64,000 bases of DNA, from positions 18,176 through 82,175 of IMG/VR virus record IMGVR_UViG_3300029906_000004. One strand, written 5' to 3'. The notes below the pieces were generated by a model, which saw only the letters and a list, made by a program, of their open reading frames with translations, was not told where the DNA came from and did no database searches. Position numbers and translations under genes: made by a program. How positions within the stretch are numbered: the stretch's first letter is position 1; every line of letters starts with the position of its first letter. Shown here piece by piece: positions 41,649 to 55,911 of this stretch. The stretch comes from a virus.

Positions 41649-42200
41649 TTAGTAGTTCTCTTTGACTAATTGTTTTAATCTTCGTCTTGCTTTATTGAGG
41701 TCTGTTCTTACAGTTGCCTCAGGTATAGCAAGCGTTTCAGCTATTTGCTGATAACTCTTTCCTTCTATTCTCATATTTAGCATATCTCTATATTTTTTCT
41801 TTAATAGATTTATGCATTTTAATGTTATATCTACTTCTTGTTTGTAAATATAATCATCTTCAGGACTATATTCTCGTCCATCTAATTGAATAGTAGATTC
41901 GTCATCATCAATATAGCTATTTAATTGTTCCTTCTTATTTCTCCGTATATAATCTATTGCTGTGTTTAAAGTAATAGTCTTTAACCACATTTCAAAAGAT
42001 ATATGCTGAGTATAAGTATCAAGCTTTGTAAATGCTTTTGTAAATACCATAGACACAATGTCGTCTGCAACATCGATATTTTTGACAATCTTAAAAGCTG
42101 TCCACCATATCGTTTCTTTATACGTGTAATACAATTCATTAAAAGCTTTTTCGGAACCTTGTCTAGCTTGCTCTACTAAAAGTTTTACTTCTTCTTTCAT
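41649..42200 (-). CDS. ECF (sigma-24-like) RNA polymerase sigma factor
   Basis: Region 2 (LVEQARQGSEKAFNELY...WLKTITLNTAIDYIRR) and region 4 (GKSYQQIAETLAIPEATVRTDLNKARRRL). Confidence 0.88.
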   Translation of the reverse strand: MKEEVKLLVEQARQGSEKAFNELYYTYKETIWWTAFKIVKNIDVADDIVSMVFTKAFTKLDTYTQHISFEMWLKTITLNTAIDYIRRNKKEQLNSYIDDDESTIQLDGREYSPEDDYIYKQEVDITLKCINLLKKKYRDMLNMRIEGKSYQQIAETLAIPEATVRTDLNKARRRLKQLVKENY

Positions 42201-42265
42201 AACAGCTAGATTTTAGTGAGTAGTAGTGAACCCAATCACTACTACCCTTAGTTGCATTACTTTAG

Positions 42266-42733
42266 TTAAAAAGGTAATACATTCTCTATATACCATTGAT
42301 TTAAAAGGACTTTTCTATTCCAATAAAGTTCCTTTATCCAGTTAGCCCATGCCATTTTATGTTCTGCAGGTACTATTGGTAATGCGTATATAAAGTTAAC
42401 ATTTATCCTTAATTGGACAAGTTCACGGTTATTGTTTGCAAATTCCGCAGTATCTATAATTTCATTAAAGAAATTATCTAGTCTTTTCCAAAGATTCCAA
42501 ATGTTATTTCTTAAGTTGATTTGATATTCAACTGAATGAGGCAGACCTAATAAGATTCTACCGTCTAAATTCGTGCGAAAAAAACCATATTCTAGATTGT
42601 TTTCTTTAAAAGTTCCTGTACAGTATATTTCTCCATCTTTTATAAAAGGATGGCATCTACCTGTAGTAATGAGAGGTACTGAACCCTTAAATCTAGAATA
42701 ATCAGATTTATCTATGCATTCTGCGGCTGTCAT
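42266..42733 (-). CDS. Hypothetical protein
   Basis: 155-aa ORF. Confidence 0.65.
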   Translation of the reverse strand: MTAAECIDKSDYSRFKGSVPLITTGRCHPFIKDGEIYCTGTFKENNLEYGFFRTNLDGRILLGLPHSVEYQINLRNNIWNLWKRLDNFFNEIIDTAEFANNNRELVQLRINVNFIYALPIVPAEHKMAWANWIKELYWNRKVLLNQWYIENVLPF

Positions 42734-43182
42734 AATCTCGTTCTTATTCTGATTTTAGATTCAACTTGTCGAATGATAATATCAGCTTGAGATTTACTGT
42801 AGCCTTTACCAATGATTACGGCTTGCATCTTAACAATATACTTGTCGGGATACATAATACGTAAATCTTGATAACGATCGATGAGATCCTCCAACTCTTC
42901 CTCTTCTAAGTCTGTGGACTTATTAGATTCTTTCATTGGATCTTGTTTAATTGCGTCAGATACTGCTGGTAAATCGAAGATATAATTCTTCGGATTCATG
43001 AGAATATCTTGAATAATATAAGAATCTTGGTCTAGTTTCGTTATTGTACCATCTTTCTCCATATCATTCAATAATACTCCACTAACAATATCTAGCATAG
43101 GAGCTTCACCTGTAACTTTAATAAGTACAGATACATTTTTACCGTTGGCTATGTATAAGCCAGCTTTTTTTAATTCTAACAT
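42730..43182 (-). CDS. Hypothetical protein
   Basis: 150-aa ORF. Confidence 0.65.
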   Translation of the reverse strand: MLELKKAGLYIANGKNVSVLIKVTGEAPMLDIVSGVLLNDMEKDGTITKLDQDSYIIQDILMNPKNYIFDLPAVSDAIKQDPMKESNKSTDLEEEELEDLIDRYQDLRIMYPDKYIVKMQAVIIGKGYSKSQADIIIRQVESKIRIRTRL

Positions 43183-43185
43183 ACT

Positions 43186-43368
43186 TTAATCTTTTTGATA
43201 AAAATTGTTTGCTACTACATCAGCATCTGCTAGAGTTAATTTGTACTTATCTCTTACAGCTCTGAGAAAATCCATTTTAGAGTTACTAGCTTTCGCTAGC
43301 TCTTTCACTTCTTGTATGAGTCCTTGTTTATTAAACTTAACCCATTGTACGATTTCAATGTCTTTCAT
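43186..43368 (-). CDS. Small hypothetical protein
   Basis: 60-aa ORF, operon packing. Confidence 0.55.
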   Translation of the reverse strand: MKDIEIVQWVKFNKQGLIQEVKELAKASNSKMDFLRAVRDKYKLTLADADVVANNFYQKD

Positions 43369-43670
43369 TTTAACTGTTCTAATCTATCTAAGTATTCATG
43401 ATAGATATTAGACCAAAAACTATAACCTTCTTTAGTTTCCTCCCAAAGAAAAGCATCTACAATATTTTTATTGTTTCTTGCTAATTCTCTTACTTTTCTT
43501 TGATATTCTAAAGTATTCATTCTTCTTGTTTTAAGAAGACTATTTGCACGAGTTATAACTACTTTATATGCATATTCTACATAATTTGTTAAAACTCTAT
43601 GCTTTCTTAGAACATCCTCTAATGGTTGAGGAATATTCTCTTTAATAATAAAGCGTATTCCTTTTGCCAT
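43365..43670 (-). CDS. Hypothetical protein (F-x-W-x-x-T-x-E-G-Y-x-F-W family)
   Basis: Shares this motif with 46302-46598. Confidence 0.6.
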   Translation of the reverse strand: MAKGIRFIIKENIPQPLEDVLRKHRVLTNYVEYAYKVVITRANSLLKTRRMNTLEYQRKVRELARNNKNIVDAFLWEETKEGYSFWSNIYHEYLDRLEQLK

Positions 43671-43672
43671 AA

Positions 43673-54135: not shown

Positions 54136-54565
54136 CTTATACCCTATGACGCTATGGATCGGTTCTATTGACGATATGAAAAGAGCAACAAAGTTATTCA
54201 CATTCTATTATGATGTAGACGGTTTGAATAACGATGAAGAGCCTGTTAATATGGAACCCGTGCCGAGTAAGACCGCGTCTGGCGTTACTTATCTCGTTCG
54301 GTATAAGAAGACAGAAGAGAAAGGATGTTTGGTGTTACTTAATACGGAATATTTTGAAGAAGGAGATTATACGACTATACTAGATACAGTAAGTCATGAA
54401 GCAAGTCACGTAGTAGATGCAATCTATCAAGTAATACATGAACAAAGTGGAACATACGATAGTGGTAATGAACCTCACGCTTACTTAACAGGTTGGGCGG
54501 CAGGATGCATGGGAGATTACTTAACTAAATATTTTAGGAAGATAAATGAGCGCAAAGAAGTATGA
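54116..54565 (+). CDS. HExxH metallopeptidase-like protein
   Basis: VSHEASH...EPHAY. Confidence 0.6.
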   Translation: MILQYSNLYPMTLWIGSIDDMKRATKLFTFYYDVDGLNNDEEPVNMEPVPSKTASGVTYLVRYKKTEEKGCLVLLNTEYFEEGDYTTILDTVSHEASHVVDAIYQVIHEQSGTYDSGNEPHAYLTGWAAGCMGDYLTKYFRKINERKEV

Positions 54566-54884
54566 TGACGGTAAGTCTAGAATGGACTTAGTACCTTTAG
54601 ATATAGTAGAAAATGTAGGCAAAATATTAGGTATGGGTGCACAGAAATATGGAGAAAATAATTGGCAAGATTTACCTAATTTCTGGAATAGATACAAAGG
54701 AGCATTACTAAGACATTTAGCTGCTATAGACAGAGGAGAATTACTGGATCAAGAGAGCGGGTTACCTCATATAGATCATGTACTATGTAACGCAGTATTC
54801 CTTAGCTGGGGGTTTCATCATGGTAAAAGTATTAGTACGCCTATAAAGGACTTAGATAATGAGCAAGACAAAATAGCAGCTTGA
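54546..54884 (+). CDS. dATP/dGTP diphosphohydrolase (DUF5664-like)
   Basis: KYDDGKSRMDLVP...GAQKYGENNW...ALLRH...DQESGLPHIDH. Confidence 0.85.
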   Translation: MSAKKYDDGKSRMDLVPLDIVENVGKILGMGAQKYGENNWQDLPNFWNRYKGALLRHLAAIDRGELLDQESGLPHIDHVLCNAVFLSWGFHHGKSISTPIKDLDNEQDKIAA

Positions 54885-55029
54885 ACAAGAAATTGAATAT
54901 TATGAGCGTAAAATAGGAAGGTACTTGATTAATCAAGAATATGTAGATCCTGCTTGCTCGTTACAAGAAGCATATAGAAGATTAGAGAAATTAAAAAAGA
55001 AATTATTAACGAATTATAATTTAGATTAA
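54859..55029 (+). CDS. Small hypothetical protein, TAG at codon 6
   Basis: MSKTK(TAG)QLEQEIEYY...; fills the gap. Confidence 0.5.
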
Positions 55030-55030
55030 T

Positions 55031-55330
55031 ATGAATTATTATATTATAAACGGAGCAGTAGTAAGTCTTAAAGATAACAAAATAGGAAAAACAGAGAAAG
55101 GTTGGGTTAGCATTAATAATTGTCATCGCATTCCCGAAGACGGGACACTTGATGGTAAAGAAGTACATGCCGGAGATATTGTAATTACTACTTACAATGA
55201 CGAGTGTTTTATTATAGTTGATAAAGATTCTGCCTTTGCAGACGCAATAAATGCAGATATCGAAAATAGAGAGAAATACCTAGCGAACGGCCAAGTATCT
55301 GGTGAATGTGAAAGTTGTAGTCCCGCATAA
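55031..55330 (+). CDS. Hypothetical protein
   Basis: 99-aa ORF. Confidence 0.6.
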   Translation: MNYYIINGAVVSLKDNKIGKTEKGWVSINNCHRIPEDGTLDGKEVHAGDIVITTYNDECFIIVDKDSAFADAINADIENREKYLANGQVSGECESCSPA

Positions 55331-55878
55331 TGAAACTATTTGATATTTTGGCAGGTTCAGTTACAATCCACGAAGATGCTTTAGCGATACCAGCTTTTAA
55401 GAAAGTATGGGAACTTGATAAAGATAAAAAGCATGCTACTGACATACTTAGTTACATAGTCTTACAAAATAAATGGAATAGCCCGTATGTGACTTCGATA
55501 ATAGACGAGAACGAACGCGCTAAACGTCTAAAGCAGCAGTTCTTTAATGATTCTAACTATTCTCTTACTATAGAGGAGAAGCTTGCAGAAGATGAATTTA
55601 ACTTCTTACAGAATACTTCTACTCTTCAATTACTTAACAACATCAGACTTAAATTAAATAGTATTAGCGCTTACTATAAGGATTCTTTAGATGAAGAATT
55701 GAATGAAAAGAAGATTAAGGACTTATTAGCAGGTATGGCTAATGCTGATAAAGTATTAGAGTCTATTGAGCATTTAGAGGATAGAGTTAAAGCTGAAGAG
55801 AGTATGAAGTCTAAGAAAGTTAGAGGTGACGCTAAGATTAACCCGTTTGAGTTACCTACTCAGAATGTTGGGAAGTAA
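55330..55878 (+). CDS. Conserved crAss-like protein upstream of the terminase
   Basis: 182-aa ORF, TAATG coupling; function not assignable. Confidence 0.65.
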   Translation: MKLFDILAGSVTIHEDALAIPAFKKVWELDKDKKHATDILSYIVLQNKWNSPYVTSIIDENERAKRLKQQFFNDSNYSLTIEEKLAEDEFNFLQNTSTLQLLNNIRLKLNSISAYYKDSLDEELNEKKIKDLLAGMANADKVLESIEHLEDRVKAEESMKSKKVRGDAKINPFELPTQNVGK

Positions 55879-55889
55879 CAACAGAAATA

Positions 55890-55911
55890 AACCAATAATT
55901 ATTAATACGTT
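55890..55911 (+). promoter_or_regulatory. Putative ECF-sigma promoter AAC-N13-TACGTT
   Basis: Upstream of a 50-aa ORF, the suppressor tRNA, HNH and tRNA-Met. Confidence 0.6.

Follow-up and report, generated by a model that had tools for sequence, protein, structure and literature searches.

Few viruses in the human gut match crAss-like phages in abundance, and little of their transcription programme has been described beyond a virion RNA polymerase (RNAP) and, in a single marine relative, middle promoters of sigma-70-like type. The redirection of host RNAP by phage sigma factors is classical. The stretch of DNA analysed here (the window) comprises 64,000 nt, bases 18176-82175 of the complete 103,003-bp genome of a crAss-like phage (IMG/VR record IMGVR_UViG_3300029906_000004), whose closest annotated relatives are Suoliviridae with ~68-70% DNA identity. 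The window encodes a sigma factor of the extracytoplasmic function (ECF) type, and a two-block motif, AAC-N15-17-CGTT, precedes several of its genes and transcription units. That this motif is real and under selection is hardly in doubt. It is probably a promoter, and the comparative evidence leans toward the phage sigma as the factor that reads it, the conserved units then forming the sigma regulon. Coordinates are window positions unless marked 'genome'.

In ECF promoters, a -35 AAC and a -10 CGT are typically separated by 14-17 bp, and sigma-W of Bacillus subtilis reads TGAAAC...CGTA (PMC5758882). Coliphage phiEco32 is, by its description, comparable in being a lytic phage with an ECF-family sigma factor, gp36, which is reported to direct host core RNAP to middle and late phage promoters (PMC4281155). 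Unlike the present motif, the gp36 promoters are described as consisting of a single -10-proximal motif, tAATGTATAtA, with no AAC/CGT pair (PMC4281155); phiEco32 further differs in encoding an inhibitor of the host sigma-70 RNAP and in lacking a virion RNAP, recoding and a tRNA among the genes of the regulon. For phi14:2 and beta-crassvirinae, conserved middle and late promoter motifs have been described that are read by host RNAP and often stand before a tRNA gene (10.1101/2020.03.07.982082). The present motif resembles these in being conserved upstream of crAss-like phage genes, with one copy before a tRNA. However, the phi14:2 promoters are tripartite, have elements like the -35 and -10 of primary sigma factors and are used by the E. 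coli sigma-70 holoenzyme with no phage sigma, whereas the motif reported here is ECF-like and restricted to the Suoliviridae examined that bear the sigma gene.

A timing role for stop-codon recoding in late and lysis gene expression has been proposed (Borges et al. preprint, 10.1101/2021.08.26.457843; Yutin et al., PMC7886860), and the words 'promoter' and 'sigma' do not occur in the text of either source. The present phage shares with this model the recoding of TAG in late genes only, a phage-encoded suppressor tRNA and a TAG-containing holin gene, and it adds candidate transcriptional control of the tRNA unit and of the holin leader. A search of the available literature returned no paper giving Suoliviridae sigma promoters or a regulon. 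The sigma gene itself is not new, since homologs (26-70% identity) are already annotated in all Suoliviridae GenBank records matched, one of them with Bacteroides salyersiae BSC162 given as the host, and systems of this kind are known; what seems not to have been described is the promoter set with its content.

An earlier note, made from the sequence alone, had reported AAC-N13-15-TACGTT at four positions on the (+) strand (50428-50451, 51935-51957, 52432-52453 and 55890-55911) and one on the (-) strand (30510-30488), each ahead of a gene or unit start. All five copies are present as described. They lie 13-42 nt before an ATG (10 nt for the (-) copy), except that the copy at 50428 lies 205 nt before the gene at 50657. 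The one said to follow a terminator directly, at 52432, does so (52375-52395), and the (-) copy said to lie inside an intron is found in an intervening sequence, next to a homing endonuclease open reading frame (ORF). In the form of the relaxed core, these sites are as follows.

50428..50451, (+): site d, AAC-N17-CGTT, at the head of the small-gene/ThyX block; it heads a 526-nt intergenic region
51935..51957, (+): site c, AAC-N16-CGTT, 20 nt before a Cpn10-like gene
52432..52453, (+): site b, AAC-N15-CGTT, 42 nt before an operon with a helix-turn-helix (HTH) regulator
55890..55911, (+): site a, AAC-N15-CGTT, 13 nt ahead of the leading small ORF of the tRNA unit
30488..30510, (-): AAC-N16-CGTT in the intervening sequence of a Sak4-like gene, 10 nt before the endonuclease ATG

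The closest annotated relatives are cr114_1, cr125_1, cr115_1, cr6_1, cr53_1, cr60_1, cr4_1, cr56_1 and cr10_1. Conservation was followed in nine Suoliviridae lineages from several subfamilies. At the four positions a to d, AAC-N15-17-CGTT is found in 30 of 34 orthologous upstream regions, and every conserved gene-proximal site has the sense orientation. Each position has its own characteristic spacer length, while spacer sequence turns over, completely in some lineages. Site d has N17 in eight of nine lineages and N16 in the ninth. Site c has N16 in all eight lineages with an intergenic gap there; the spacers of cr6_1, cr4_1 and cr10_1 are unrelated to that of the window, and only AAC and CGTT at N16 are common. 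Orthologs of site b read AAC or TAC, N15-16 and CGTT (8/8 lineages), and those of site a have AAC (7/9) or TAC or CAC (2/9), N15-17 (mostly N15) and CGTT (9/9). In an eight-sequence alignment of site c, AAC and CGTT are the sole invariant columns; at site d, two A columns upstream of AAC are invariant besides them. Purines are preferred 5' of AAC, up to the GGGAAC that three lineages have at site d. The base before CGTT is A in 26 of the 34 sites, and the base after it is A or T. Of the TACGTT originally taken as the -10 part, CGTT is therefore the invariant portion, usually as ACGTT followed by A or T, and the leading TA is not conserved in relatives. The motif is asymmetric, AAC being followed by G in 0/34 and GTT always preceded by C.

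A fifth position is new here. The motif also stands before a TAG-containing holin-like ORF that needs read-through (genome 6793-6815), as AAC-N16-CGTT(AT) 107-143 nt ahead of the holin gene in 8/8 lineages checked, with N16 in every one; with this position added, 38 of 42 orthologous positions keep AAC and CGTT. Because the search required the pattern, it was controlled by permuting the letters of both blocks in all 36 ways. The true motif was found in 30 regions and 34 of the 35 others in 0-3, the overlapping one-base shift ACA...CGTT being found in 14. CGTT ranked first of 256 four-mers paired with AAC, and AAC first of 64 three-mers paired with CGTT. Eighty further IMG/VR relatives gave 28 distinct sequences upstream of the Cpn10-like gene, 21 of which carry the motif, with two new spacer variants. 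One contig has AGC for AAC and six others are without CGTT; in at least five of these six the preceding gene abuts the Cpn10-like gene, as in cr114_1/cr125_1. Two distant Oafivirinae, with sigma proteins 26-32% identical, have GCAAC-N17-CGTTAT at the head of a gene block.

In the genome itself, AAC-N13-15-TACGTT occurs seven times in 103,003 bp against ~4 expected from composition, so that the whole-genome count is by itself not significant; the relaxed core AAC-N15-17-CGTT occurs 36 times. Enrichment was examined in 35 sense-strand segments of <=80 nt upstream of genes with an intergenic gap, with 3000 dinucleotide-preserving shuffles. The longer form was found four times (0.033 in shuffles) and the core five times (0.18 in shuffles), and 0/3000 shuffles were as high in either case, figures that are optimistic, and supportive rather than decisive, because the motif was defined after seeing the data. 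These figures rest on a curated gene list; with automatic ORF calling, some sites are swallowed by false read-through ORFs. Pairs of sigma-70-type hexamers show no enrichment in the block (32 vs 32.6). A position weight matrix (PWM), trained on the sites of the relatives only and scanned over the whole genome, placed 51935 (20.3 bits), 55890 (20.1) and 50428 (19.8) at ranks 1-3, 4-5 bits above the rest, and the pre-holin site outside the window (genome 6793-6815) at rank 4 with 15.5 bits. With AAC and CGTT 15-17 apart, directional and upstream of genes, at most sites 10-45 nt from the ATG, the motif has the shape of an ECF-type promoter (as defined in PMC5758882).

The earlier note had also suggested a comparison of genomes with and without the sigma gene. 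Upstream enrichment is seen here and in cr6_1 (6 vs 0.33 in shuffles), and not in crAss002, a Bacteroides crAss-like phage of another family that has no sigma homolog: its 35 upstream segments hold 0 copies vs 0.27 expected, though 23 occur genome-wide. Bacteroides phage DAC15 (NC_055832.1, Steigviridae) was dropped as a sigma-less control, since a near-CG-less genome, with 74 CG dinucleotides in 99.5 kb, cannot hold CGTT and is uninformative. In its own right, DAC15 is an instance of near-total CpG avoidance, with 74 CG in 99,494 bp against ~3400 expected and normal GC dinucleotides.

The sigma gene and its neighbour are as follows.

41649..42200, (-): ECF-type sigma factor gene, 183 aa, with Pfam, PHROG, NCBIfam and PDB matches
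41287..41631, (-): membrane protein, 114 aa, directly downstream of the sigma gene, with a hydrophobic N-terminus

The claimed phage ECF sigma is genuine. It passes the ECF superfamily threshold (TIGR02937 sigma70-ECF, 92.7 bits vs a cut-off of 42.9) and has regions 2 and 4 only, matched by Pfam Sigma70_r2 (E 1e-10, residues 23-90) and Sigma70_r4_2 (E 4.6e-13, residues 127-175), with no region 3 or region 1 match in Pfam. The protein belongs to PHROG 1740, and its scores with the SigW, Sig70_bacteroi1 and PG0214-type equivalog/subfamily models are under every cut-off, which places it outside any named ECF subgroup. In the PDB it comes closest to SigW (5wuq, E 1e-16) and sigma-E (1or7). A profile search of the complete genome returned one PF04542 and one PF08281 match, and this is the sole sigma gene; a 'sigma factor/ubiquitin-like' gene of cr6_1, considered as a second sigma, and its ortholog here are DUF7841 proteins and not sigma factors. 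Because the phage has this ECF sigma alone and the nearest solved relative, SigW, reads AAC-N16-CGT, a regulon of the phage sigma is the best reading of the motif.

The phage sigma has the two-domain architecture of sigma-W (ECF01), and its candidate motif resembles the sigma-W promoters (TGAAAC-N16-CGTA) in that AAC and CGT are ~16 bp apart (PMC5758882). In contrast to sigma-W, the protein is far under the SigW equivalog cut-offs (94 vs 209 bits; 83 vs 243), the fourth -10 base is T instead of A, and the phage sigma has neither an autoregulatory copy of the motif nor an RsiW-like anti-sigma, is encoded by a lytic phage and would be aimed at phage genes. The 114-aa neighbour has no Pfam, PHROG or NCBIfam match; cr6_1 has a 116-aa ORF at the same place. 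Seen from the divergent intergenic region at the head of the leftward genes, the sigma gene is at the far end of an opposite-strand run of small ORFs with long non-coding gaps, a placement that fits early expression by analogy with phi14:2.

Several observations weigh against the assignment of these sites to the phage sigma. Four orthologous sites read TAC or CAC in place of AAC. Site b (52432, 11.0 bits), the intervening-sequence site (30510, 13.1 bits) and the site before a GIY-YIG gene fall inside the noise band of the PWM, so that support for site b rests on orthology and the endonuclease sites are weaker calls. Most bacterial ECF sigmas autoregulate, and no AAC-N15-17-CGTT was found in the 65-nt stretch upstream of 42200 or nearby on the same strand. 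No recognisable anti-sigma was found either, the 114-aa neighbour having no anti-sigma domain match and no zinc-binding HxxxCxxC. Finally, the sigma-bearing genomes form one clade, so that the co-occurrence of sigma and motif is a single phylogenetic contrast, and the counts overstate the number of independent observations because the lineages are related.

Another polymerase might read the same sites. The motif could be the promoter of the injected virion RNAP, marking early units without involvement of the sigma factor, which is unlikely. Four of the sites do head the small-gene block beside the divergent intergenic region, where early genes are typically found, and the promoters of crAss-like virion RNAPs are, to our knowledge, not defined. 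In phi14:2 the virion enzyme transcribes the early genes, but a motif common to the early transcripts was not found upstream of them (10.1101/2020.03.07.982082). The two-block shape and spacing of the present motif are those of ECF promoters (PMC5758882). Moreover, it stands before the TAG-containing late holin gene and before homing endonuclease genes scattered in the replication and structural modules.

It is distinctly unlikely that the motif is read by a host ECF sigma, with the phage sigma recognising something else or acting otherwise. Bacteroides genomes carry many ECF sigmas. The AAC/CGT combination is common to many ECF groups with overlapping recognition (PMC5758882), and the absence of a motif copy upstream of the phage sigma gene would agree with an outside reader. 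Yet the motif tracks the phage sigma across the family and is not enriched in the sigma-less crAss002, which itself infects Bacteroides. A lytic programme leaning on a normally sequestered host stress sigma would also be fragile, and the upstream regions examined hold no other conserved candidate motif for the phage sigma.

The conserved blocks might instead be binding sites of a phage regulator and not a promoter, for example of the HTH protein of the site b operon.

52911..53279, (+): small HTH-type transcriptional regulator, with weak MarR_2 and FtrB-type matches; annotated so in all relatives
52418..52443: inverted repeat TGTTAAAAT-N8-ATTTTAACA, operator-like as read from the sequence, overlapping the -35 region of site b

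Since GTT is the reverse complement of AAC, a weak dyad is imaginable, and a clear inverted repeat overlaps site b. The TGTTAAA and TTTTAACA halves of this repeat are retained at site b in cr114_1, cr115_1 and cr53_1, and TGTTAA copies are clustered ahead of sites b and d, those ahead of site d being repeated in relatives. The repeat may serve the phage HTH regulator as an operator or activator site. The TGTTAA repeats are, however, an element separate from the motif, being absent at sites a and c and the holin site. The motif itself is not symmetrical (its left block is never AACG, its right block always CGTT) and is strictly sense-oriented, its spacer varies from 15 to 17 and its distance to start codons is promoter-like, and a role as regulator site is thus very unlikely. 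Next to no weight is given to chance matches in AT-rich intergenic DNA: the genome-wide counts (7; 36 for the relaxed core) are near the composition expectation, but the upstream shuffle tests and the permutation control contradict this explanation, as does retention of the motif at five orthologous positions across subfamilies despite spacer turnover.

If the phage sigma is the reader, the following course of events is proposed. The phage sigma, once made, would bind host core RNAP; AAC at -35 would be recognised by its region 4 and CGT(T) at -10 by its region 2, and transcription would start a few bases downstream of CGTT. The predicted regulon comprises the small-ORF/ThyX operon, the Cpn10-like gene, the regulator/dNTP-pyrophosphohydrolase operon headed by site b, the tRNA unit and the pre-holin leader. 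Besides the regulator gene, the rightward block holds the following features.

51081..51758, (+): ThyX thymidylate synthase (Pfam Thy1, E 2e-48), downstream of site d
51978..52346, (+): Cpn10 (GroES)-like gene (Pfam Cpn10, E 5.9e-4, just under the cut-off); 'putative chaperonin' in relatives
52375..52395, (+): intrinsic terminator of the Cpn10-like unit (terminator scan: 8-bp stem with 5 GC pairs, T-rich tail)
55925..56077, (+): conserved 50-aa ORF from the ORF list; a small ORF is at the same place in all relatives

The genome is laid out in three blocks, as judged by ORFs and stop codons, listed here together with a ribozyme match in the second.

57248 across the record ends to 20707, rightward: late block, with ORFs that are open only when TAG is read as an amino acid
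50130 to 20786, (-): leftward block without in-frame TAG; small ORFs and long uncalled gaps come first, then the sigma gene, and replication genes last
50657-56077, (+): short rightward block without recoding; the tRNA unit comes next, and after it the terminase gene
45620-45732, (-): strong Hatchet ribozyme match (96.9 bits, gathering score 51), within the part of the leftward block with small ORFs and non-coding gaps

The record ends are direct terminal repeats. In-frame TAG is restricted to the late genes, with 84 TAG codons in an ORF of 4532 aa and none in the leftward block. By this pattern of predicted ORFs, the genome is that of a stop-codon-recoded phage (code 15) with a putative CUA-anticodon tRNA of its own. 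Between the leftward and rightward blocks, the divergent intergenic region (50160-50300) contains a conserved stretch with G and C (ending ...CACACGCA...) and behind it an A/T-rich run, common to relatives across subfamilies; this stretch could be an origin, a start region for the virion RNAP or a packaging end.

The suppressor tRNA said to lie behind the 55890 site is part of a unit that comprises the small ORF, tRNA-Gln(CUA), an endonuclease gene and tRNA-Met, and that abuts the TAG-recoded late genes.

56159..56234, (+): amber-suppressor tRNA, anticodon CTA (hand fold; anticodon loop CTCTAAA, aberrant T loop, encoded CCA)
56276..56716, (+): HNH-type endonuclease ORF between the two tRNAs; HNH/homing endonuclease in relatives, no Pfam match above threshold
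56853..56925, (+): tRNA-Met (CAT) (ARAGORN; Rfam tRNA, 59.8 bits)
56972..57007, (+): hairpin and T tract before TerL (fold -24.6 kcal/mol, z -3.07)

The suppressor tRNA was missed by ARAGORN (default, intron mode and lowered threshold) and by Rfam; a tRNA-Gln is annotated at the same place in cr114_1, cr125_1, cr6_1, cr53_1, cr60_1, cr4_1 and cr56_1. The position of the tRNA behind site a is borne out by the relatives, since the site heads a tRNA-holding unit in every TAG-recoded relative examined. In cr10_1, site a is present with no tRNA gene there, and the terminase is annotated in the standard code. This implies that the site a promoter is older than, or independent of, the tRNA; it belongs to the small-ORF unit, with the tRNA as a putative passenger. 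A metagenome contig joins 56235 to 56713 and thus represents a related strain without the HNH ORF. The HNH-type endonuclease gene is, on the evidence of this junction, a predicted mobile insertion in the tRNA unit, missing from some strains.

The hairpin before TerL is nearly identical in cr114_1, cr125_1, cr115_1 and cr53_1, with as few as 22 nt to the ATG. In these five lineages, the window included, the space after the hairpin is too short for a promoter. The hairpin may act as a regulated terminator, as a processing site or in packaging, and late-gene transcription must read through it or be explained otherwise.

If the phage sigma reads the promoter of the tRNA unit, synthesis of the suppressor tRNA would depend on prior sigma expression. 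The earlier note had gone further and set out a cascade from the virion RNAP through the sigma factor to the suppressor tRNA and the amber-rich virion genes, a transcriptional timer for the genetic-code switch. Two elements of this hold: the tRNA unit is headed by a site that ranks among the best conserved, and the TAG-containing late and lysis genes would need the tRNA. The sites do not form a simple 'middle' class that feeds the code switch, because the holin and homing endonuclease genes carry the motif too, and it is doubtful that the motif works as the proposed timer.

The pre-holin site has a leader structure of its own. A hairpin with a T tract follows ~30 nt past the motif (genome 6793-6900), likewise in the orthologous places of relatives, and 6 of the 13 pairs of its stem show compensatory changes. 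Motif and hairpin together predict a leader RNA of ~65-75 nt, or an attenuator, before the putative lysis cassette. Pairing of the C-rich loop of this hairpin with the pre-terminase hairpin, in the manner of a small RNA, was considered and dropped, the loop not being conserved in three lineages. In a more ambitious proposal, the phage sigma is the one master switch and lysis is held by two locks, the suppressor-tRNA unit and the pre-holin promoter ahead of the terminator hairpin. The suppressor tRNA would be the translational key for TAG-containing late genes; the pre-holin transcript would meet its terminator hairpin ~30 nt on, directly before the TAG-containing holin gene, and a second conserved terminator would stand between the tRNA unit and the terminase gene. 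Production of virion and lysis proteins would require first sigma, next the suppressor tRNA and last terminator read-through, and this layered timer of transcription and code would be conserved across Suoliviridae. This proposal is speculative and, taken as a whole, rather improbable.

In phage T4, intron-borne and intergenic homing endonuclease genes are expressed from phage promoters of their own. A comparable arrangement is seen here, with endonuclease ORFs behind a phage-specific promoter-like signal and one of them inside an intervening sequence. Unlike in T4, the putative signal is of the ECF type and not a T4 middle or late promoter.

28806..30637, (-): split Sak4-like AAA_24 gene (exon 1 30637-30551, exon 2 29462-28809), interrupted within the Walker A region
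29689..30477, (-): LAGLIDADG homing endonuclease ORF (Pfam LAGLIDADG_3, E 4.5e-6)

By tblastn, residues 1-29 and 29-247 of the Sak4-like protein of cr6_1 map to the two exons, and exon 2 has a Pfam AAA_24 match. The intervening sequence of ~1.09 kb holds the LAGLIDADG endonuclease; no group I intron match was found by Rfam around 29380-30800. The motif stands 10-28 nt before the starts of two homing endonuclease genes, the LAGLIDADG ORF and a GIY-YIG/NUMOD gene after the major capsid gene, and cr6_1 has three more homing endonuclease genes with the motif. Homing endonuclease genes, both free-standing and intron-borne, may thus have adopted the signal.

If the phage sigma does read the motif, crAss-like phages of this family would have a concrete regulon of five conserved units and mobile endonuclease genes. 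This would provide probably orthogonal and compact sigma/promoter parts for Bacteroides genetics. It would also offer a first mechanistic approach to the timing of amber-suppressor tRNA synthesis, which is a gap in the hypothesis that recoding times lysis.

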